IMG/VR virus record: IMGVR_UViG_3300026095_000001 | Length of the DNA: 64,000 nucleotides | Direction: 5' to 3' (one strand) | Source of the DNA: an uncultured virus (IMG/VR IMGVR_UViG_3300026095_000001) | Taxonomy: Duplodnaviria > Heunggongvirae > Uroviricota > Caudoviricetes > Crassvirales | Shown here: positions 3,210 to 61,682 of the stretch, in pieces | Layout: each line of letters begins with the position of its first letter | Numbering within the stretch: position 1 is the first letter of the stretch | Made by a program: the position numbers and the translations under genes | The notes under the pieces: model-generated | Database searches by the model: none | What the model saw: the letters and a program-made list of their open reading frames with translations, nothing else | Told to the model about the DNA's origin: nothing

Positions 3210-3590
3210 TTAGATAGGTTCTGTCGGCGGTTCCGTCAGGCCATATAATTTATCTAATTTGTCGTACGTAGATTGCTTAGCGATCGATTTACCTGTTTCC
3301 ACGTTTTGAATCGTCCCCCGGCTTACGCCGCTTAAGTCAGAGGCGGTTTCCAAGCTGAACCCTTTGGCATACCGCGCCGCCTTGTAATCATGCTTTGGAG
3401 GGGGCGGTGGAACGTCCGTTCGGTTCCTCTTTTTCTTCTGCGGTTTTTCGATAGCGGCAGGCCGTCCCGGCCCTCTCGTGCCAACGATCTCCAGGAGCTT
3501 ATTTACCTCCGCCATCTCCACATTATTACTTTTGAGCCATTGGAGAACTTTGATGGCTTTGTCCGGGTCGAACTTATTGAGGTCGATCAT
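3210..3590 (-). CDS. Protein with C-terminal XRE-type HTH
   Basis: ARYAKGFSLETASDLSGVSRGTIQNVETGK. Confidence 0.8.
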   Translation of the reverse strand: MIDLNKFDPDKAIKVLQWLKSNNVEMAEVNKLLEIVGTRGPGRPAAIEKPQKKKRNRTDVPPPPPKHDYKAARYAKGFSLETASDLSGVSRGTIQNVETGKSIAKQSTYDKLDKLYGLTEPPTEPI

Positions 3591-3607
3591 GTTGATTATG
3601 CTTGTAG

Positions 3608-3678
3608 TTGCGGGACCGGGAATCGAACCCGGATGCTGGGCTTATGAGACCCGCGTGTTACCGTTACACTATCCCGCG
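3608..3678 (-). tRNA. tRNA-Met(CAT), initiator-like
   Basis: CGCGGGA acceptor with C1:A72 mismatch, anticodon loop CTCATAA, T-loop TTCGATT; CCA not encoded. Confidence 0.88.
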
Positions 3679-3958: not shown

Positions 3959-4222
3959 TTATTCCTCCGTGTTTTCCTCTTCTGGTGGAGGGTCTTCGAA
4001 TTTAACTACCGCGACCTTATAACATAAATCGGATTCTGACACCTTTAGAAAATCGGCTATCGCCCTAACATCGGATAGCATTGGCTCCTGTCCCCGCTCC
4101 AATCTGCCGATTTTGGCATGGTCAAACCCTATCGCCATACTCATTTCGGGAGCCGTGAGGTCCAAATACGATCGCCAAAGTGCAAGATTCCGCCTGAAAT
4201 AATTTTCCATGTTGTCGAGCAT
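3959..4222 (-). CDS. XRE-family HTH protein
   Basis: NLALWRSYLDLTAPEMSMAIGFDHAKIGRLERG. Start moved to 4222 because the longer ORF overlaps tRNAs. Confidence 0.8.
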   Translation of the reverse strand: MLDNMENYFRRNLALWRSYLDLTAPEMSMAIGFDHAKIGRLERGQEPMLSDVRAIADFLKVSESDLCYKVAVVKFEDPPPEEENTEE

Positions 4223-4230
4223 TACATTTG

Positions 4231-4323
4231 AGCGGAGGGGTGGATTCGAACCCCCATGGGGGTGCCTAGAATTCCCCCCATTCAGTTTTAATGAATGCCG
4301 TCTACCAACTCCGGCACCTCCGC
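4231..4323 (-). tRNA. Atypical type II tRNA (Leu-like body, apparent anticodon AAA)
   Basis: Acceptor GCGGAGG/CCTCCGC, D-region GGTAGACG, stem ATTCA/TGAAT closing loop TTAAAAC, long variable arm GGGGG/CCCCC, T-loop TTCGAAT, discriminator U. Confidence 0.75.
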
Positions 4324-4326
4324 ATG

Positions 4327-4398
4327 TTGTCCCGTCCGGGTTCGAACCGGAGACCCCTTCCGTATCAGAGAAGTGCTCTACCGCTGAGCTACAGGACA
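4327..4398 (-). tRNA. tRNA-Ile(GAT)
   Basis: Full cloverleaf; anticodon arm CTTCT-CTGATAC-GGAAG. Confidence 0.9.
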
Positions 4399-4400
4399 AT

Positions 4401-4769
4401 AGGGGAGCTGGTCGTATCCTGCCAGCCCCCGATACACTTGTTACGGTTTACGAGACCGCTGCTACTGTGCAGGTAGCTAACCTCCAGGCGTACGGTTTTC
4501 ATGCGGCCTTAAGCTAAGGCTAACATCTGATGATTTGACCACTAATCTACTCCGCCATATAACGGGGGTACCGGGCGACACAAGTGCCATCGGCCCCCGA
4601 GTTGCTGTTTGCCAACACTAACTGAGGCGGAGACAGGATTCGAACCTGCGTTGTCAGAATTGGGACCACATGACCGCACGCGATAATAAACAAAGCTGAA
4701 GCTGTTGACACAATGCTAAAGCTAATCTATCTAGGATCGGCTGAAGCTAAGGCTGAAGCTAAGGCTCTG
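4401..4769 (-). ncRNA. Structured RNA containing a circularly permuted tRNA-like domain and AGC-N3 repeats
   Basis: The 3' tRNA half (4658-4625) precedes the 5' tRNA half (4556-4526) and all four stems pair. About 10 AGC-N3 hexamers; terminal hairpin at 4402-4430. Confidence 0.8.
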
Positions 4770-5564
4770 TCAAATTTTTCCATCGTGGATATATCCAAAG
4801 ATCATTTCTGCTGTCAACTTAGATTCAACCACCGGCGCTTCGTTTGCGACCGCTAGCGCCTCCTGCACCGAAGCTTTCAGATTTGTTATTCGGCGCAACA
4901 TGGTGGCTCTATCAAGGTGCGAAAGCTCCCCGCTGTACTCTTGCAATTCGAAGGTACCTTCCGTAATGGTCGTATTGGTTTGCACAACTTGCGGTACATA
5001 ACTTTTGGTGTCTTTCAGCTGTGCCAGATTGGGATCAGTCAAGATGATCGAAGCCTTCTCCGTTGTTCGTTGCACCTGCGTTTTTACCTCCGTTTCATAA
5101 ATCAGCTTCGCCGACATTTCTGGATCGGCGGATAACTTCCAGTTTTTGGTATCCGATCGTACAGGGAGTGTCTGATACATTTTGGTCAGCTCCGCATTGT
5201 TCAACAAATCACGGAGCCGCATCAACTCCAGTGTCGTGAATTCTCCCCAGGTAACCCCTTCCACAATAAGTGGGGCCTTTTTTCCCGTTGCGTTTGTCGC
5301 CTCAACCGAAAACCGATTGTTGATATATTCTTTCACCGTCGATACGAACCATGCTAAATAATCACGTACGGTAGACTGCACAGCAGTAAAACCTGTGAGG
5401 TGCGGGTGCTCATCGCGCCCCGGCGCCGCAGTATATACCTGTCGTTTGCCCTGGAAAATCCCCTGCTTCTTTGCAAACGTGTCCAGATAGTCTTTTACCA
5501 GCGCGACGTACTGCTTCCCCGTATGCTCTGCTTTTGCCAGCAGCGCGTTTAATTTTTGTCCCAT
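4770..5564 (-). CDS. DUF7873-like protein (family name from memory)
   Basis: KLNALLA N-terminus, F.G....Y, LPVRS...W, YSGE.....RA.ML.R...L...V.EAL..AN. Confidence 0.7.
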   Translation of the reverse strand: MGQKLNALLAKAEHTGKQYVALVKDYLDTFAKKQGIFQGKRQVYTAAPGRDEHPHLTGFTAVQSTVRDYLAWFVSTVKEYINNRFSVEATNATGKKAPLIVEGVTWGEFTTLELMRLRDLLNNAELTKMYQTLPVRSDTKNWKLSADPEMSAKLIYETEVKTQVQRTTEKASIILTDPNLAQLKDTKSYVPQVVQTNTTITEGTFELQEYSGELSHLDRATMLRRITNLKASVQEALAVANEAPVVESKLTAEMIFGYIHDGKI

Positions 5565-5770: not shown

Positions 5771-5771
5771 G

Positions 5772-5844
5772 CGGGGCGGAGCGGACTCGAACCGCCGACC
5801 CAAGGATTAACAATCCTTTGCGCTACCAACTGCGCTACCTCCCC
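5772..5844 (-). tRNA. tRNA-Asn(GTT)
   Basis: Anticodon arm AAGGA-TTGTTAA-TCCTT, T-loop TTCGAGT, G73; one acceptor mismatch. Confidence 0.88.
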
Positions 5845-5847
5845 ATG

Positions 5848-5921
5848 TCCCCCCACCTGGGTTCGAACCAGGGACCCACGAATTAAAAATCCGTTGCTCT
5901 AGCCAGCTGAGCTATGAGGGG
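5848..5921 (-). tRNA. tRNA-Lys(TTT)
   Basis: Anticodon arm ACGGA-TTTTTAA-TTCGT; canonical D and T arms. Confidence 0.9.
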
Positions 5922-6383: not shown

Positions 6384-6911
6384 TTAAAAATTTTTCAATG
6401 TCTCAATTTTACTCATGGTTAATATTCCAACCTTCATACCGTCCATGATCTCTTTTCCGATGTACTTCAACCATGCTTCCATTTCCGCTTGCGGCGGCAG
6501 GTATCTCCTATGACAATTCGCCACGAGCTTATTGACATAGTTACCTGACTTGGTGGGCCGTTCGAGGTGATGGCCCGTGCGCATATAATAATAAGCCGCC
6601 GCTACTACCCAGCTCCTGTTTCTACCGCTGTGGCAATACAAGTAGACAGATTCATTATTTTGTTCTGCCTCCCATAAAATAACACAGGCAGCAAAGATGT
6701 TGTTGAGCCCCATTTCCATCTTGAACTCTGAAAGCGGAAACCACCAGTACCGTCTCCGTTCATAAATGGGCATCTCGCCGAAATACAACTCATCCGATAC
6801 GTTAATAATCGTCGCGTATTTACCAGGATGCCACTCCTTCAACGCCGGGCTTGGCATGGGACCCACTTCCAGCTTATCCGTGAACCATGATTGAAAATTA
6901 TGGTTGCTCAT
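6384..6911 (-). CDS. Dual-specificity/protein-tyrosine-phosphatase-like protein
   Basis: P-loop VYLYCHSGRNRS (Cx5R), IINVSDE. Confidence 0.85.
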   Translation of the reverse strand: MSNHNFQSWFTDKLEVGPMPSPALKEWHPGKYATIINVSDELYFGEMPIYERRRYWWFPLSEFKMEMGLNNIFAACVILWEAEQNNESVYLYCHSGRNRSWVVAAAYYYMRTGHHLERPTKSGNYVNKLVANCHRRYLPPQAEMEAWLKYIGKEIMDGMKVGILTMSKIETLKNF

Positions 6912-7466: not shown

Positions 7467-8225
7467 TTATTTTCTTCCTGGCACTTCCGGATATAACTCC
7501 GTCACGACATCACTCTGCCAATACTCTTTTGTATCGAGGTCCATGATCGTCAACTTACCATTCCAACCGCCGCCCGTATCCAGGTTCCAGACACCTCCAG
7601 CGCAGACCGGACGCATCTCATCTATACGCTGACAGGTGGTATGCCCGATGAATATTTCCGTAAAATCATCCGCCGTTTTCAATCTATCCAGCCCTTTACA
7701 GCACAATGCTTTTTCCCACAGGTCGCGGTCCCAGTAGAACATATACTCATGATTGTGTTCATTTTGCTCCATGGTCAGCAGGCGATCAAATCCGCCATGC
7801 ACAAAGCAACGACCATTCTCCACGTAGTACAACTGCATCTGTTCGAAGAAGCGCCGATGGGCGAATGGGATATCCTGCGGCAACAGAAATTCCATGAATC
7901 CCCCAGCGCGATTGAGATGCATATTTTCCTCCGGCACACGCTTGCAATACGACAGCGCGGTCGCTTTACCGCCCTGCCGCCATCCATCTGAATGATAGCC
8001 GCTTAATATCCAGCGCAAGAACCATTCATCGTGATTGCCCAGGATATCGATGCGGTTAGGGATCGTTAGCAGCTCTTCCACGCACTCGTATACGTCCGGC
8101 CATCCGTCGCATATGTCGCCCAAAAAGATGAGGCGGTCTTCCTCTTTATTGATCTTACACCGCTCCAGCACCTGCTTCAAGCCCCGGTAACAGCCGTGCA
8201 GATCGCCTAATACAAATGTTCTCAT
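7467..8225 (-). CDS. Calcineurin-like metallophosphoesterase (Ser/Thr phosphatase, NinI/PphA-like)
   Basis: GDLHG, GDICD, GNHD, FVHGG, IGHT, NLDTGG motifs. Confidence 0.93.
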   Translation of the reverse strand: MRTFVLGDLHGCYRGLKQVLERCKINKEEDRLIFLGDICDGWPDVYECVEELLTIPNRIDILGNHDEWFLRWILSGYHSDGWRQGGKATALSYCKRVPEENMHLNRAGGFMEFLLPQDIPFAHRRFFEQMQLYYVENGRCFVHGGFDRLLTMEQNEHNHEYMFYWDRDLWEKALCCKGLDRLKTADDFTEIFIGHTTCQRIDEMRPVCAGGVWNLDTGGGWNGKLTIMDLDTKEYWQSDVVTELYPEVPGRK

Positions 8226-56129: not shown

Positions 56130-59100
56130 ATGGCAGAAGAACAAGACATAGCACCCCCATTAGAGGAGGAGGCGCCCCCGCAGGAACAAGAGGGCGAAGG
56201 AGCTGGGCCAGGGCCGGAACCTGTATTGTCCGACGAAAAGAAGAAAGAGCTGGCGGGCTTGATCCGGAACATGCAGGCAGATAAAGTACCAGAGGAAAGG
56301 ATTCGATCGGTGGTCGGATTGTACTATAAGAAGTACGCCGTCACCATGCCAACGCAGCCTAATTACCGAACGCCAGCGTCCGCGCAACCCGTGAGCGATA
56401 AGCCCTCCACTCAACAGCAAACTGCTGATAAATATGATATCAGCCAAGACCCCAATAGTGTTGCGCGGAGGCAGCACTACGCGACCTTTCGCGATCAAGC
56501 TATTAAAGACGTGGAGAGTGATGCGTGGCGTGATAAGGTTTTTAAAGGCAAAATCCCGGCGTTAACAGAGGCACCCAATATGCCGATTGAAGCCTTCCAG
56601 GATGTAGATCGCGAACAGCTAGAGAATTACTTGAGTAGTAAGAACCTGGACAACGGTGAACGCTATTGGCTACGGAATCAGCTGCTGAACTACGGAAAGG
56701 CTCGGCAAATGCGCTATTACGTACAGCAGCGGGCACAAAAGAAAATCGATGCGCTGCCAGAAGACGAGAAGAATAATGAGTTAAGTATTCAGAAAGCATA
56801 TCAAGCGGCGGATGTTGAATACCAAAAGCACCGGGAGCAGGCCATTGCCAATCGCCTTAACAACATAGGCCTTGACAATAAGCCACTACGGGGGAACATA
56901 CCTTTCCATGACCAGATTACGGGAGCTAATAAGACGTTGATGGGGGCCATCAATTTTGCAGGCGATCTCGGATCACAAGTTAGCTCTATTCTGGAATTGG
57001 GGAATGTCCCTGGTTTAAGCACGCTGGGCTACCATATGAAGACAACGGCGGATAATCTGAAAGCTAGGAATGAAATTCCGCAGACGGGGGAACTGGGGAA
57101 TAAGCTGGCGGGTGAAATCGTGCCCTTGGCGCTGGATATGGTTGCCCTGCGCAATCTTTCCGGTGGGGGTACAGGCCTGTATCAGGGACTGCGTGGTGCG
57201 CAAGCGACCTCAGCCCTGGGACAATTTGGAGAAGGCGTTGTCGGGGGATTGGTGGTGAGTCCCGCCAATAGCTACATCATGGGTCACCAGTATTATAATC
57301 AACTGGTGCAGCAGGGGGTTCTTCCCGGCGATGCCGCGCACAAGGCCGACCAACTGATCACAAAGAATCTTCTTACTGATATGGTCATGACGCCGTTGCA
57401 GATGGGGCTATTGAAAATGCCAATGGGGAACGCAGCAGCAAAAATCCTTGGATATGGCGCGGAGGGGTTGACATCCGGCGTGCATTTCACCATTCAAGAT
57501 TTCAACCAAAAGAACACCGATAATCCCGCGATGCACATCATTGATTATTTGCAAAGCGGCGATTGGAAGGAACCGATGTTAACGGGGGCTGTGCTTGGCA
57601 CTATGCAAAAGGCGGCGGTCGATGGGCTACACAATTGGTCCGTGAATTCCGAGACAAAAAACATGTTCAGCTATGGGCGAAAATACGGCACGGATGTGCG
57701 GAATAGTTTGCCCAGCAATGAGACGATTGCCAACAATGTATTGTCGGCCATTGAAATGAGAGATACCCCTGGAAGGCCACAGGAGCTAAAGGACTTAGTC
57801 GATGCCATGCAAGAAACCGGCGTATACCGGGAGCATGAGGCAAAGCGCGTCAAAGACATTATTGATGATGTCGTAGCGGCAAAAGCAATGACGCCGAAGT
57901 TCGGGAACCCACTCCAGCGAATGGCAGTTTTCAATGAATTGTTGAACATTCGAAGTGCCAATGAATTCAAAGAAAATGCAGGCGGAGAAGCGGGCGAAAA
58001 ATATATCAATCAGCTGAATAAAGTTAGTGAAGCCAGGATACAGCGGATCATGGCAGATGAAGAACCGTTGTATTTTATCAACGGCAACGAAACGAATAAG
58101 ATACAACTTATGCGCGCGCTGGAGGAGAATCCTGAGTTGCTTTCCAGTAAAGCGGTGCGGATCGATGTTCGCAATGATCCTACTACGCAAAAACAAATAG
58201 CCGATTTAAAAACAAAGCAAGATGCCATTCAAAAGCAAAGCACAGCAAAGGCTGATGTTCGCCCTGCATCCAGCGATAGCGAAGCGGTGGGCGGACGAAA
58301 TGAAGGCCAAAGGGCAATCGATAAAAAAGCTTCCGGAGAAGAAGCCAACGCCGACCAGAGGGTAGAAGAAAGTCGACACAGCCTCACCCCACATGATGAG
58401 CAGGGGATTGTTTCCGGACAAAACCAGCTCGGTCTATCAGATGAGGGCGTAGTAAAAGCCCATGAACTAAAAGATGAAGTGCGAGCTAATAAAAACGTTA
58501 CGAAGGTCATCTCCAGCGATTTAGCCAGGGCGAAAGAAACGGCGGACATTGTTGGCGGAGACGACATCCCCGTCGAAACACGACCCGAATTGCGCTCATG
58601 GGACCTCAAAGATTTCAGCGGGATGAAAGACAAAGATTTCAAGGAAGTCTTAAAATGGTTCGGCGATCACCCAAATGAAGTAAAATACCAGGGGGATATC
58701 GAAAGCGCGAAAGGGAAAGAGCTGGGGGAAAGCTTGAATGATTATGCCAACAGAGCCATTAAAGCCCGTCAGGATGTGGAAGATAATGATCCCGGTTCAT
58801 TCCTTATCAGCCACTCCAACAACATGAATGTATGGGAAGCGTATAAGGCTAATGGGCGGGTATGGGATGAGCATGCTATTAAAGATTATATCTCTCGACC
58901 CTCTCCGGAGCCAGCAACGATTCAACCAACGGAAGCAGAAAATGCCACGGGTCACCAAGTTGTAAATGATATCGAGAGCGGCAAGATATCGGATGAACAA
59001 TTAAAGGACACCGCTCGTCTATTCATAGAAGATGAAGCATACCAACCAGAGCCCGCTGATGCGATTTATGCACCTGATGCAGCAAAAGCCGGAAATAATG

Positions 59101-61682
59101 AACCTGATGAAGCATCTCGACAGTACTCAAAAAGAAAAGGTCCTGAAAAATATGTTCCGCCATCTGGCGAAGGGGGCGAGCCTCCAAACCAAGATTCAGG
59201 CGCCGAACCCCTTCCCGAAAGTGGAGGCACCCCCGACGCGTCTAGGTTGACACGTAACGCTAAGCAGCTTCTAATAGCCGGTCGTACAGACGATCAGATT
59301 GTTACCTATCTCAAACGCAAAGGGCTGGGCGAAGAGGAGGCATTGGCAGCATTAGGTGCGGCAAAGGCAAATCCAATTGATGAGCAACAAAAAGCAAAGT
59401 CGATCCAGGAAGTAATGGATAAATACTTCGGCAAAGAGGATGACTGGCTAGGTAATAAAGAGCTGGCGAAGGTTAATTCGCAACAAACCACCAGAGAATA
59501 CCATGAGGCTTTAAAAGAGTCCGTTAAGCAGGACAATACGCAGAAAGGTACATCCTGGAAGGATGTAGACAAGGCCATACAGATTTATCTGGATAGTAAG
59601 CGAAATCCGGAACATATCAAGATGTACTATGATAAGCTCACACCTGATCAAAAAAAGATTGTTGATCTATCACAGCATTTAAATGAACGTCAAAAAGAAA
59701 TTGCGGATGCCATTCGGGAGGAGTATGATGCGATTGGGCAACAGGCAAAAGACGCGTCTTTAATTAAAGACGTTATCGATAACTATGTAGCCAGGGCCTG
59801 GGAGCTTAGGAATGGTAAACCAGCCACACAAGAGAACTTCAAATTCAATACGTCTAGTAAGCACCAATTACAAAGAACACTAGAAACCATTTTGCAGGGT
59901 TACGCGGAAGGGATGAAGTTGAAAATTGAGGGGGCCACCAATAACCTTCACGTCTTAAAACAAGAAATCAACAACGTCATAGAGAATCGTAGGTTGTTGG
60001 AGCAGGGACTTTCGCTGAAATACGCCTCTGGAGAAAAATATCCCAGCGGTGGCCGCATAAAGAAAACATTGTTTTCTACAACGGCAGAACCAGGATATAA
60101 AAAAATAGAATCCGGCGCTTTTAAAAAGTGGGAATATGCTGGCAAATTAAAAGATTACCCTGAACAGGAAGCGGTCGCGCTAGGTCGGCGAAAGGATATT
60201 CTCGTTACAGAGGATGGAGTTGTAATGAAGAAAGCAGATGTTTATGCGCCCGAAGAGGTTGCAAAGTCGTTGAACAATATCCTCGCTAGTCGCAGGTCAT
60301 CCAGCGGGTTCGTGAATGGGATTGCGGCTTTTAACAGCGCAGTGAAACAATCCATCTTATCGTATTCTGGATTTCACTTTATTGCCTTTACGCGGGCGCA
60401 TGTCCTTAGTACCAAATTCAGCAAGCCTGCCGACGTCTCGCCGATCACGGCATATAAGGCGGGGCTGCAAATGTTGGCAGAACAGCATCCCATTGGTCAG
60501 AAGCTGATCCAGAAGGGGATGACACTTAACCGTCAACCGGATTGGGTTGAAGGAGTTGAGGCGCACAATACATGGCTAGGAAAGCAAATGGATAGGCTCT
60601 CCTTTACGAAGGCAGCGAAAGATAAGTTAATTGATCTCAATACGCAGTTTCATCACTATCTGTTTAATACCTACGGAGCCGGTCTGAAAATGTTTGACGG
60701 CGTAAACATGGTAAAGCAGGAGCTGGCAAAGAATCCAAATGCCAATCCGGATGAAGTATATGCCCGCGTGGCAAAACTAATGAATGATACGTACGGCGGT
60801 ATCAACTGGGATCGGATGAGAGGGACCCACATGCAAAACCCGACCAACCGCCGAGTGGCCAGTATGTTGCTCCTGGCCCCCGATTGGACCGCGAGCAATT
60901 TACGAATGGCGCGAAAATTTTTTGCGCGGGGGGATGAAGGGGGATTGTACCGCAGAGCATGGGGGCGAGTCCTGCTACGGGGGGCTATGCTGACGACAGC
61001 AGCCAATGCAATTATGGCAGTTTGGGATGACAAAGATGATAACGGAAACGACCTCACCTGGACAGAAGCCATGCAGCGAAGGTATTCCAAATCGTGGGAG
61101 TTGGGTAAGCTGCGCTCTACTATGATTGATATTACCCCTCTCTACCGTGCCATCGGTGGCGACTCACAGAAACGTGCATACTTCAGCATTTTCGGAGCAT
61201 ACACCGATCCCATTAAGATGCTGACAAATCCAACTGATTTTTTGGAAAGCAAGGGATCATTTGTATCAAAGGTCGGCCTAGAAGCGCTCACTGGTCAGAA
61301 TTGGCAACATCGAGAGTTTACTACACTCGATGAACTATTAGGCATGGATGATAAGGGAACTTTTACCAAAGCCATGCGAGAGCACAAGAAAGGAGAAATT
61401 AGCCCTACGACGGGAAAGCCCTATGTAAAGGATCAAGCAGGGCACGCAGCTGGCGAGGAAAAAGGCGGCAAATTAACTGGGGAATTAACAAAGTGGCCGC
61501 AAGGCGGCGCCCATCCAGTCACCTGGATGCAGGCGCCCGCATTCATCCTGAATGAAGTCCGAGGGATGATGCCTACGGCTGTTCAAAGCATGTGGCAAAT
61601 CGCAGACGGGGAGAATGATATGGCCACGGGAATTTTGAATGCAGCCGGTTCAGGTGTGCTAACCAATAAAGAAAAGAAATGA
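56130..61682 (+). CDS. Large ejection/polyvalent virion protein with internal histidine-phosphatase domain
   Basis: 1850 aa; RHSLT...SG...GLSDEG...SSDLARAKETA...LRSWD...GES...ISH. Confidence 0.75.
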   Translation: MAEEQDIAPPLEEEAPPQEQEGEGAGPGPEPVLSDEKKKELAGLIRNMQADKVPEERIRSVVGLYYKKYAVTMPTQPNYRTPASAQPVSDKPSTQQQTADKYDISQDPNSVARRQHYATFRDQAIKDVESDAWRDKVFKGKIPALTEAPNMPIEAFQDVDREQLENYLSSKNLDNGERYWLRNQLLNYGKARQMRYYVQQRAQKKIDALPEDEKNNELSIQKAYQAADVEYQKHREQAIANRLNNIGLDNKPLRGNIPFHDQITGANKTLMGAINFAGDLGSQVSSILELGNVPGLSTLGYHMKTTADNLKARNEIPQTGELGNKLAGEIVPLALDMVALRNLSGGGTGLYQGLRGAQATSALGQFGEGVVGGLVVSPANSYIMGHQYYNQLVQQGVLPGDAAHKADQLITKNLLTDMVMTPLQMGLLKMPMGNAAAKILGYGAEGLTSGVHFTIQDFNQKNTDNPAMHIIDYLQSGDWKEPMLTGAVLGTMQKAAVDGLHNWSVNSETKNMFSYGRKYGTDVRNSLPSNETIANNVLSAIEMRDTPGRPQELKDLVDAMQETGVYREHEAKRVKDIIDDVVAAKAMTPKFGNPLQRMAVFNELLNIRSANEFKENAGGEAGEKYINQLNKVSEARIQRIMADEEPLYFINGNETNKIQLMRALEENPELLSSKAVRIDVRNDPTTQKQIADLKTKQDAIQKQSTAKADVRPASSDSEAVGGRNEGQRAIDKKASGEEANADQRVEESRHSLTPHDEQGIVSGQNQLGLSDEGVVKAHELKDEVRANKNVTKVISSDLARAKETADIVGGDDIPVETRPELRSWDLKDFSGMKDKDFKEVLKWFGDHPNEVKYQGDIESAKGKELGESLNDYANRAIKARQDVEDNDPGSFLISHSNNMNVWEAYKANGRVWDEHAIKDYISRPSPEPATIQPTEAENATGHQVVNDIESGKISDEQLKDTARLFIEDEAYQPEPADAIYAPDAAKAGNNEPDEASRQYSKRKGPEKYVPPSGEGGEPPNQDSGAEPLPESGGTPDASRLTRNAKQLLIAGRTDDQIVTYLKRKGLGEEEALAALGAAKANPIDEQQKAKSIQEVMDKYFGKEDDWLGNKELAKVNSQQTTREYHEALKESVKQDNTQKGTSWKDVDKAIQIYLDSKRNPEHIKMYYDKLTPDQKKIVDLSQHLNERQKEIADAIREEYDAIGQQAKDASLIKDVIDNYVARAWELRNGKPATQENFKFNTSSKHQLQRTLETILQGYAEGMKLKIEGATNNLHVLKQEINNVIENRRLLEQGLSLKYASGEKYPSGGRIKKTLFSTTAEPGYKKIESGAFKKWEYAGKLKDYPEQEAVALGRRKDILVTEDGVVMKKADVYAPEEVAKSLNNILASRRSSSGFVNGIAAFNSAVKQSILSYSGFHFIAFTRAHVLSTKFSKPADVSPITAYKAGLQMLAEQHPIGQKLIQKGMTLNRQPDWVEGVEAHNTWLGKQMDRLSFTKAAKDKLIDLNTQFHHYLFNTYGAGLKMFDGVNMVKQELAKNPNANPDEVYARVAKLMNDTYGGINWDRMRGTHMQNPTNRRVASMLLLAPDWTASNLRMARKFFARGDEGGLYRRAWGRVLLRGAMLTTAANAIMAVWDDKDDNGNDLTWTEAMQRRYSKSWELGKLRSTMIDITPLYRAIGGDSQKRAYFSIFGAYTDPIKMLTNPTDFLESKGSFVSKVGLEALTGQNWQHREFTTLDELLGMDDKGTFTKAMREHKKGEISPTTGKPYVKDQAGHAAGEEKGGKLTGELTKWPQGGAHPVTWMQAPAFILNEVRGMMPTAVQSMWQIADGENDMATGILNAAGSGVLTNKEKK
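58222..58365 (+). CDS. Overprinted small basic protein (MPFKSKAQ type), +1 frame
   Basis: MPFKSKAQQRLMFALHPAIAKRWADEMKAKGQSIKKLPEKKPTPTRG; A-rich start context. Confidence 0.6.
   Translation: MPFKSKAQQRLMFALHPAIAKRWADEMKAKGQSIKKLPEKKPTPTRG

Follow-up and report, generated by a model that had tools for sequence, protein, structure and literature searches.

What kind of RNA does a phage make from a gene in which the 3' half of a tRNA precedes the 5' half, and is such a gene peculiar to one genome or a member of a family? The question is raised by a 64,000-nucleotide stretch of DNA from an uncultured virus of the Crassvirales (IMG/VR record IMGVR_UViG_3300026095_000001), hereafter the window, in which an earlier note made from the sequence alone had described a circularly permuted tRNA-like RNA. 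The element lies on the minus strand between a tRNA-Ile gene and an open reading frame (ORF) at 4770-5564, also on the minus strand, that encodes a 264-aa protein of the DUF7873 family (Pfam PF25283, E 7.5e-33). Here we report that the element is a member of a conserved phage RNA family and that the DUF7873 gene is the conserved genetic partner of this RNA. As to what the RNA is, the reading that we favor, with somewhat better than even confidence, is that of a tRNA mimic of YrlA type, circularly permuted and encoded by the phage, from a family with genetic coupling to DUF7873.

A permuted tRNA body with a rod in place of the anticodon loop

Reading the minus strand in transcript order and folding it without constraints both confirmed the permuted, tRNA-like layout of the element in the window. 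The 3' half comes first (4658-4625) and reads TCTGA, CAAC, GCAGG-TTCGAAT-CCTGT, CTCCGCC and T. Sequence, fold and a covariance model match (see below) agree in assigning these segments to the 3' strand of an anticodon-like stem, P2a (4658-4654), a variable loop (4653-4650), the T arm (4649-4633), the 3' strand of the acceptor stem (4632-4626) and U73 (4625). The 5' half (4556-4526) reads GGCGGAG, TA, GATT-AGTGGTCA-AATC, A and TCAGA, which by sequence and fold correspond to the 5' strand of the acceptor stem (4556-4550), U8A9 (4549-4548), a D arm with AGTGGTCA as its loop (4547-4532), A26 (4531) and the 5' strand of P2a (4530-4526). Between the two halves lies a 68-nt insert (4557-4624) that starts with C74 and folds into hairpins. 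The acceptor stem (4632-4626 with 4556-4550) forms 7/7 pairs with C:G at position 3:70, the D stem (4547-4544 with 4535-4532) 4/4 and P2a (4658-4654 with 4530-4526) 5/5, so that the pairing originally proposed for these three stems was reproduced in full by the unconstrained fold; the T stem (4649-4645 with 4637-4633) encloses the loop TTCGAAT. This fold, of positions 4685-4400, recovered all helices of the tRNA body as well as two further helices and a terminal hairpin, with a minimum free energy (MFE) of -109.2 kcal/mol (z -3.16; 1/200 shuffles as good). The tRNA body is complete, and its anticodon loop is replaced by paired flanks.

The flanks form a rod. In the MFE fold the strand 4664-4673 pairs with 4508-4499 to give a 10-bp helix, P2b, in which two pairs are G-U and which also appears in RNAalifold predictions on other loci, and the strand 4674-4681 pairs with 4495-4488 to give P2c, for which equivalent stacked helices are present in L051, L010, L008 and the L012 group. 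The 3' side of the rod (4488-4525) thus comprises an internal loop (4525-4509) that holds AGCCTTAGCTTAAGG, the P2b strand, an AAA bulge (4498-4496) and the P2c strand. The internal loops beside P2a measure 17 and 5 nt in the window and vary in length among loci. A further helix beyond the anticodon stem had been predicted, and the fold contains one, but the proposed 9-bp register (4680-4672 with 4508-4500), which takes up part of the P2c strand, is possible only as an alternative; we prefer P2b (4673-4664 with 4508-4499) followed by P2c because this arrangement is that of the MFE fold and because homologous helices are found in L051, L010 and L008. Downstream of the rod a 3' tail (4487-4403), recognized both as a conserved alignment block and in the MFE fold, contains small hairpins, the motif ACAAGTG and a terminal hairpin (4430-4403), after which the tRNA-Ile gene follows at 4398. 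The terminal hairpin carries the loop CAGGATACGA, the window's version of the family's conserved GAAGGATATTGA-type loop; GAAGGATATTGA itself is found in many loci, and a run of T residues follows the hairpin in several relatives.

Conservation and covariation define an RNA family

Using a profile of 14 homologs of the window's DUF7873 protein, we collected 52 IMG/VR loci encoding a DUF7873 relative. A first screen of these regions looked for a T-loop-like heptamer and a T stem of at least 4 pairs, and further required that a 7/7 acceptor complement lie within 400 nt, with GG at the start and T as the discriminator. The swapped layout was present downstream of the gene in most loci, with acceptor sequences that were quite different from one another. 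After de-duplication 31 elements remained, and removal of two spurious matches (in L032 and L035) left 29 unique elements, the window's included, among which there are 23 distinct acceptor stems. Parsing of the 29 elements revealed the hallmarks of tRNA, namely U8, A14, G18G19 and a TTCRANY T loop, together with a Levitt pair that is G15:C48 in most members and A15:U48 in L039.

We then built a covariance model, R1, from 14 short-insert loci downstream of homologs of ORF 4770-5564; the window was kept out of this seed, and the modeled helices were limited to the T, acceptor and D stems. R1 recovered the window's element, at 4520-4663(-), with a score of 51.8 bits (E 2.1e-13; 362,681 bases searched) and found a match at the expected position in 45 of the 52 IMG/VR DUF7873 loci. 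Members found by R1 and missed by the screen include elements with A1:U72 (L043), U1:A72 (L040) or one acceptor mismatch (L006). True members with short or moderate inserts scored 46-82 bits, true long-insert elements were aligned only in part and scored 22-31 bits, and matches to tRNA junctions reached at most about 38 bits; matches below 38 bits were mostly false positives at junctions of tandem tRNAs, a caution that the authors of work on YrlA RNAs also voice (PMC4201824).

The half-swap has been kept in the homologs with compensatory changes. In an alignment of 23 members (one per distinct high-scoring element, from 23 of 53 sources, with hits fitted to R1, which favors structure), 95.4% of cells fell in standard pairs compared to 66.9% in shuffled alignments, both sides had changed in 14 of the 16 modeled pairs, and none of 500 shuffles reached any of these measures; when partners were slid by 1-3 columns, pairing fell to 38-51%. 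A plain MAFFT alignment of 14 loci led RNAalifold to four helices, which are the T stem, the 7-bp acceptor stem, the D stem and P2b, with compensatory changes in 17 of the 22 predicted pairs. P2a pairs 5/5 in 20 of 25 non-redundant cognate pairs; among 590 non-cognate pairs, allowed equal freedom, 84 did so. The element is not a product of chance, because a model built from other loci finds it in the window and because compensatory changes are seen across loci.

The rod is conserved in form. Its helix sequences differ completely from locus to locus, while the downstream strand of P2b always ends in TGA, followed by AA(A/T), and the upstream strand begins with TCA 13-44 nt 5' of the T stem. For 14 loci other than the window, RNAalifold predicts the helix homologous to P2b as 6 bp long, with double changes in 5 of its 6 pairs. 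Rod duplexes between cognate strands were more stable than those between non-cognate strands (mean -21.5 vs -16.8 kcal/mol; Mann-Whitney p 6e-6), with the cognate partner ranked first in only 5 of 25 cases.

The prediction that standard finders would miss the element also held. ARAGORN on the native sequence and Rfam at gathering thresholds reported only five ordinary tRNAs in the window, the native element was not called as a canonical tRNA (RF00005), and an Rfam scan of 4200-5000 by E-value returned a single match, to beta_tmRNA (7.3 bits, E 7.6). Once re-permuted, 28 of the 29 elements received a tRNA call from ARAGORN; the anticodons assigned in these calls stem from an arbitrary 4+3-nt join and have no meaning. 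In IMG/VR neither a gapped pattern of the element nor its 5'-half string had a match. A search with the T-arm/acceptor string gave four matches, all of them to ordinary, unrelated phage tRNA-Met genes. A second T-arm/acceptor pair with a 16-nt gap, which may be a tRNA junction, lies downstream of the main element in L039 (3854-3900(+)).

The RNA is coupled to a DUF7873 gene

Across all 53 regions, DUF7873 is the sole ORF cluster in common. The T stem of the RNA lies 120-171 nt past the DUF7873 stop codon, on the same strand, in 25 of 27 loci; the spacers of L005 and L050 are 246 and 355 nt. The family is large (Atlas clusters of 876, 106 and 92 members), and we found no mention of it in the literature searched. 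An AlphaFold2 (AF2) model of the protein was confident, with a predicted local distance difference test (pLDDT) score of 83.5, but had no convincing match to a known fold. Foldseek comparison of this model with the Protein Data Bank (PDB) and BFVD yielded no match at an E-value of 0.001 or better, a wide VIA-align search reached Z 6.2 at best, for generic helical proteins, and neither a PDB sequence profile (nothing meaningful) nor NCBIfam and PHROGs added an assignment. As a single query the window's protein had no match among viral contigs, and a narrower DUF7873 alignment retrieved no relative from genome contigs and one locus, apparently L010, from metagenome contigs. No prophage copy was found, and no host was thereby identified.

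In one clade of 21 loci a second gene stands directly upstream of DUF7873. It encodes a 587-aa DUF2828/DUF7788 protein that falls in PHROG 850, annotated as 'RNA-binding protein' (L011 735-2498(+); also L012-L019, L025, L027-L037, L045, L055 and L056). This protein has a predicted helical N-terminal part and an alpha/beta C-terminal part, its AF2 model is unusable (pLDDT 36.7), and it had no PDB sequence match. It is absent from the window, L010, L051, L009 and the Vibrio phage K479 described below.

A conserved leader separates gene and RNA

The segment from the stop codon to the RNA body, 4773-4682(-) in the window, contains conserved blocks in two alignments. In the window these are TTGACA (4773-4768), which overlaps the TGA stop codon, GCNTTA-like hexamer repeats (4767-4739), CTAG, GCATTG-TGTCAA (4716-4705), AGCTTCAGC and TATTAT. 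Across loci the leader is characterized by TTGAC(A/T) at or just past the stop codon, GCNTTA-type hexamer repeats and a GTGTTG..GTCAA..AGCTTTAG block. The TTGACn and nGTCAA boxes change together in several clades, to TTTGGT/ACCAAA, CTCATGCA/TGTATGAG or CTGTTATA/TGTAACAG. All 18 cognate box pairs are complementary over at least 5 bp, and 12 of the 18 over at least 6 bp, compared to 83 of 306 non-cognate pairs. Such complementarity is a hint of a leader that is itself RNA and continuous with the DUF7873 message. RNAalifold found 0 consensus pairs in the leader alignment, and the window's leader folds weakly (z -1.9). A promoter-like site (GTGTCA-17-TATTAT, 4711-4683) lies inside the leader, where it was the only scan match; by eye, the conserved leader could be read only tentatively as promoters of the sigma-70 or Bacteroidota type. 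No terminator-like site was present between DUF7873 and the RNA in the window. The leader region could be an RNA leader or a promoter.

The hexamer repeats have features of their own. In the window (4767-4695(-)), and likewise in L005-L056, GCNTTA/GCTTCA repeats are phased by hexamers with an NAG triplet every 6 nt, and in one frame they would specify runs of Ala-Leu/Ser, ALASALASADPR* in the window and LALALA* or ALALASA* elsewhere. They are absent from the leader of Vibrio phage K479. These repeats could serve to bind a protein, act as a promoter or encode a peptide. A copy of a leader box also occurs in the internal loop of the rod, at 4521-4509.

The acceptor end, the insert and relatives in Vibrio phages

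The acceptor stem is 7 bp long in all 29 screened elements, where 7/7 pairing had been required, and has one mismatch in L006. U73 is followed by C74 in 29/29 screened elements, U73 having been a criterion of the screen, and A76 is encoded in 25/29; members found only by R1 likewise read TC after the acceptor. The insert ranges from 16 to 312 nt in the 29 unique elements and reaches about 400 nt in L035, and it is AT-rich and unconserved apart from C74 and the frequent A76. Two loci carry an ORF for a very basic protein of 56 aa inside the insert (L008 4223-4393(+); L035 about 4256-4426(+)), with no match in Pfam or PHROG.

A tblastn search of INPHARED placed DUF7873 in Lak phages of Prevotella (15) and in Vibrio phages (29). 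The Vibrio phage proteins are only 27-29% identical to that of the window. In Vibrio phage K479 an element (38.8 bits) lies ~200 nt downstream of DUF7873, its acceptor followed by A-CCA, and Vibrio phage D505 has an element in the same place (43.3 bits) with G-CCA after the acceptor. The discriminator thus differs by clade, being U, A or G. In the GenBank annotations of K479 (L057, OZ196439.1; 3270-3425(-)) and D505 (L058, OZ195742.1; 3293-3388(+)), no RNA feature is given at the element, which is overlaid by small coding sequences labeled 'hypothetical protein'.

An end exposed by RNase P and 3' processing would be expected to show an encoded CCA, strict adherence to a 7-bp stem and an insert under no constraint. 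From these features of the sequence, and from the invariant U73-C74, processing of the transcript into a two-piece tRNA mimic by RNase P and CCA addition, as the earlier note envisaged, appears plausible, and the insert (4557-4624) is predicted to be a leader/trailer removed by RNase P and 3' trimming.

YrlA RNAs are the closest known family

YrlA RNAs (Y RNA-like A) are tRNA-mimicking Y RNAs bound by bacterial Ro60/Rsr, and their likeness to circularly permuted tRNAs has been described (PMC4201824; 10.1101/312249); the account given there of YrlA from M. smegmatis includes a 7-bp acceptor stem, cleavage by RNase P and CCA addition in vivo (PMC4201824; 10.1101/312249), and YrlA is reported from Ro60-encoding phages as well (PMC4201824). 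The family that we describe shares with YrlA (RF02553) the order of variable region, T arm, acceptor and D arm, the tRNA-type D and T loops, and the pairing of the RNA ends in place of an anticodon loop. Consistent with this likeness, RF02553 gave matches that were below threshold yet significant in 5 of 12 scanned loci (L049, 45.9 bits; L018, 43.3; L051, 35.7; L054, 35.2; L047, 33.7), and the element of L049 aligns to the whole YrlA model (positions 1-114) with the same architecture. YrlA is the closest known family. The novelty implied for the layout is therefore not supported, as YrlA Y-RNA-like RNAs already show T arm, acceptor and D arm in this order; what was previously undescribed is a widespread, DUF7873-coupled phage family, and our own search of the literature found no description of such a family of phage permuted tRNA-like RNAs.

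The two families differ in several respects. The conserved neighbor here is DUF7873 and not Ro60; the acceptor, 7 bp long in the screened elements, is followed by U73-C74 or an encoded N73-CCA; inserts extend to about 400 nt and may contain an ORF; and only the phage family has the repeats in the leader and the motif of the terminal loop. We set the family apart from YrlA because the Ro60-linked features failed to appear and because it has its own partner gene, leader and loop motifs.

Several observations weigh against reading these RNAs as YrlA-type mimics that act with DUF7873. Seven of the 12 relatives scanned with RF02553 had no match, all scores were below the gathering threshold of 69 bits, and the window had no YrlA match at E-values up to 10. 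The GNCGAAN0-1G motif, a proposed Ro60 contact near the 5' end of YrlA, occurs in 1 of the 29 elements when the 110 nt upstream of the T stem are considered, and does not occur in the window. A TROVE domain, the mark of a Ro60 gene expected within about 4 kb of a YrlA gene and on its strand, was found in none of the 45 window ORFs scanned with Pfam, nor was PF05731 found in any of five related phage records (three of them rated complete), a search that covers phage genes only; the Y-RNA analogy in consequence lacks its defining protein. DUF7873 itself shows no recognizable RNA-binding fold in the PDB, BFVD and VIA-align comparisons. No element was found within 2.5 kb of DUF7873 in L020, L021, L022, L026, L032 and L041, contigs of 250-550 kb whose DUF7873 resembles the version of Prevotella Lak phages, so that the gene for this protein does not always have the RNA beside it; 3' of the gene in L020 stands a terminator-like hairpin, and no element is visible there. 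The variation of the discriminator between clades argues against one fixed aminoacyl identity. Counts from the 29-element set are biased, since 7/7 acceptor pairing, a GG start and a T discriminator were required for entry, and the five sequencing runs listed for the window's DNA are all DNA (rhizosphere/soil metagenomes) and none RNA.

One further locus departs from the pattern. Near position 3350, L011 lacks ~147 nt that include the 3'-half piece, compared to its sister loci L013-L017, and retains the 5'-half piece; the gap marks a natural deletion variant or else arose in the assembly. The break appears at a short repeat ending in agcat.

A model for the maturation and use of the RNA

In the reading that we favor, the minus strand would be transcribed through the element together with, or just after, DUF7873. 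The transcript would fold into a tRNA body with a 7-bp acceptor stem, a D arm with G18G19, a T arm and a variable loop of 4-5 nt, while its 5' and 3' flanks would form the rod of P2a, P2b and P2c in the place of the anticodon loop. RNase P would cut 5' of G1, between 4557 and 4556, the 3' trailer would be trimmed to U73 or C74 (4625/4624), and a CCA-adding enzyme would complete the CCA. The product would be a two-piece RNA with a free tRNA-like end, its pieces joined through pairing in the acceptor stem and P2a-c. If Y RNAs are a guide, its tRNA-shaped module might engage tRNA-handling proteins, with the rod, the leader or the terminal loop binding a partner.

The co-encoded DUF7873 protein is, by the same analogy, the most likely partner of the RNA. 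The DUF2828/DUF7788 protein is a possible Ro60-like partner, in its own clade only. The suggestion that the acceptor piece may be the 3' end of the upstream mRNA, here that of DUF7873, fits the layout of the locus. A more far-reaching proposal is that these RNAs constitute a Ro60-independent, Y-RNA-like class that forms the 3' end of the DUF7873 message, is made two-piece by RNase P, carries an N73-CCA end that is possibly aminoacylated, and acts with DUF7873 on the host tRNA/translation machinery or on tRNA-targeting immunity, to the benefit of phages of several bacterial phyla; we put this forward tentatively, and consider it less probable than its negation.

To our knowledge, no Y-RNA-like tRNA mimic has been known other than as a partner of Ro60, and nothing is known to bind the tRNA-like module of these mimics. 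The phage family shows this permuted tRNA architecture with neither Ro60 nor the Ro60 motif and ties it to an uncharacterized phage protein family, DUF7873; a free tRNA-like end is suggested by the strict 7-bp acceptor stem and by the CCA that the Vibrio phages encode. The family escapes tRNA and tmRNA finders and the Rfam threshold, which makes it a recurrent blind spot in phage tRNA arrays and makes a model for it of use to annotators. The cultured Vibrio phages render cleavage, charging and the role of DUF7873 directly testable.

Alternative explanations

The tRNA-like body might instead be a cis-acting 3' structure of the DUF7873 mRNA, serving chiefly as its 3' untranslated region and comparable to the tRNA-like structures of plant viruses or MALAT1 mascRNA, where RNase P cleavage at G1 would generate the mRNA's 3' end and the CCA tip, to which the 5'-half piece would contribute in trans, would stabilize the message or control its translation. 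The close, same-strand spacing in 25 of 27 loci speaks for this, as do a conserved leader that begins at or overlaps the stop codon (TTGACA over TGA in the window), the lack of a terminator-like site before the RNA in the window, and the cognate TTGAC/GTCAA complementarity, which suggests that the leader is RNA. Set against these points, ORFs intervene between DUF7873 and the RNA in L035, the element of L008 is ~850 nt downstream, L005 and L050 have the longer spacers noted above, the leader contains a promoter-like site and has no consensus fold by RNAalifold (with a z of only -1.9 in the window), and an elaborate conserved rod with its terminal loop is hard to explain as a mere 3'-end device. 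As a full account we regard this as unlikely, though still credible; it is compatible with the permuted tRNA mimic that we favor and not exclusive of it.

We attach a rather low probability to the view that the RNA serves as decoy or sponge and captures host factors whose targets are the acceptor ends or elbows of tRNAs, such as tRNA-targeting toxins or tRNA-modifying and -degrading enzymes. A complete tRNA body with a conserved acceptor end and no anticodon loop would suit that role, the element sits inside phage tRNA arrays, and phages of different hosts carry it (Vibrio phages as well as crAss-like and other uncultured phages). The idea comes from general knowledge, however; no defense or anti-defense gene is linked to the element, and the strict coupling to DUF7873, the conserved rod and the terminal loop would go unexplained.

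The earlier note had held that the element is not a standard transfer-messenger RNA (tmRNA), and the presence of a D stem and of C:G at 3:70 bears this out. A two-piece, tmRNA-like rescue or tagging RNA, which would be aminoacylated at its CCA end, enter stalled ribosomes and have a leader frame (GCT TTA ..., Ala-Leu-rich) translated as its tag, could nonetheless be considered. As in two-piece tmRNAs, which have been reported in phages (PMC9004378), the gene is permuted, with the acceptor 3' piece encoded upstream, an intervening segment expected to be removed by enzymes of tRNA processing and pieces held together by pairing, and over the T arm and acceptor there are weak matches to beta_tmRNA (7.3 bits in the window and 15.1 bits in L049; threshold 84). 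In many loci Ala-Leu-rich mini-ORFs (ALALALL*, ALV*, ALALT*) come after the conserved GTCAA box; in AT-rich sequence, chance is expected to give short ORFs. No stop codon closes the mini-ORF in frame ahead of the T arm in the window, L010, L018 and L039; conservation of the GCTTTAG box is that of nucleotides and not of synonymous codons; and the repeats are missing from the Vibrio leader. G3:U70, the alanine identity pair, is found in 0 of the 29 unique elements, which instead have C:G (17), G:C (6) or A:U (6), and a further difference from two-piece tmRNAs is that the RNA described here has both an anticodon-like stem and a D stem that is full. ARAGORN made no tmRNA call in the window or in 33 loci, and Rfam tmRNA models scored far below threshold. 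We consider such an RNA improbable.

In permuted tRNA genes the 3' half likewise comes first, an intervening sequence closes the acceptor and the flanks pair past the anticodon stem (10.1101/312249). The element shares this half order and the pairing of flanks beyond the anticodon stem with the permuted tRNA genes known from red and green algae and from Thermofilum, and phosphatase genes lie upstream in the window (a metallophosphatase at 7467-8225 and a DSPc-like gene at 6384-6911). Algal and Thermofilum permuted tRNAs are matured by splicing endonuclease and ligase to decoding tRNAs with a normal anticodon loop. That our element is a permuted pre-tRNA of this kind, matured via a circle as in Cyanidioschyzon or Thermofilum, is very improbable: no conserved 7-nt anticodon loop (U33, anticodon, purine 37) can form, the flanks of P2a are unconserved, the equivalent of position 33 is G in the window and varies among loci, internal loop lengths vary, and the anticodons obtained by artificial joining differ between relatives. 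Pfam and PHROG scans of the window's ORFs revealed no RNA ligase or splicing endonuclease, and only DUF7873 is common to all loci.

Lastly, tandem tRNA junctions do give weak R1 matches and account for most of those below 38 bits, and an integrase gene lies 3.3 kb off, but a functionless chance arrangement, decayed tRNA dimer or attachment-site remnant can be dismissed given the compensatory changes, the recurrence in 45 of 52 loci and in Vibrio phages with a 27-29% identical DUF7873, and the scores of true members with short or moderate inserts (46-82 bits), which lie above every junction match.

Genomic context of the element

By its gene content and source the window resembles a crAss-like phage of temperate habit from a rhizosphere metagenome: its left edge holds an integrase-like ORF and its right edge a large terminase, and one ORF has the C-terminal domain of the Crassvirus muzzle protein. 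ARAGORN and Rfam both identified five tRNA genes on the minus strand, which are tRNA-Met (3607-3678), a 94-nt type-II tRNA (4230-4323), tRNA-Ile (4326-4398), tRNA-Asn (5771-5844) and tRNA-Lys (5847-5921). The 94-nt tRNA, which ARAGORN called as tRNA-Phe(AAA), has a long variable arm, the anticodon loop UUAAAAC and discriminator U, and scored only 38.9 bits with the Rfam tRNA model. Odd or long tRNAs (called as '???', Ser(aga) or a 92-nt Ile) are also found 3' of the element in L051, L056, L013 and L010.

Upstream of the tRNA cluster are the DSPc-like gene (6384-6911(-)) and the calcineurin-like metallophosphatase gene (7467-8225(-)), the latter NinI-like by PHROG, and elsewhere in the window an 1850-aa protein with a histidine-phosphatase domain is encoded at 56130-61682(+). 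Near two other DUF7873 loci we observed above-threshold matches to further structured RNAs, namely RAGATH-34 in L025 (277-380(+); 80.5 bits, threshold 60.7) and a type-P3 twister ribozyme in L009 (113-195(+); 41.2 bits, threshold 39.9).

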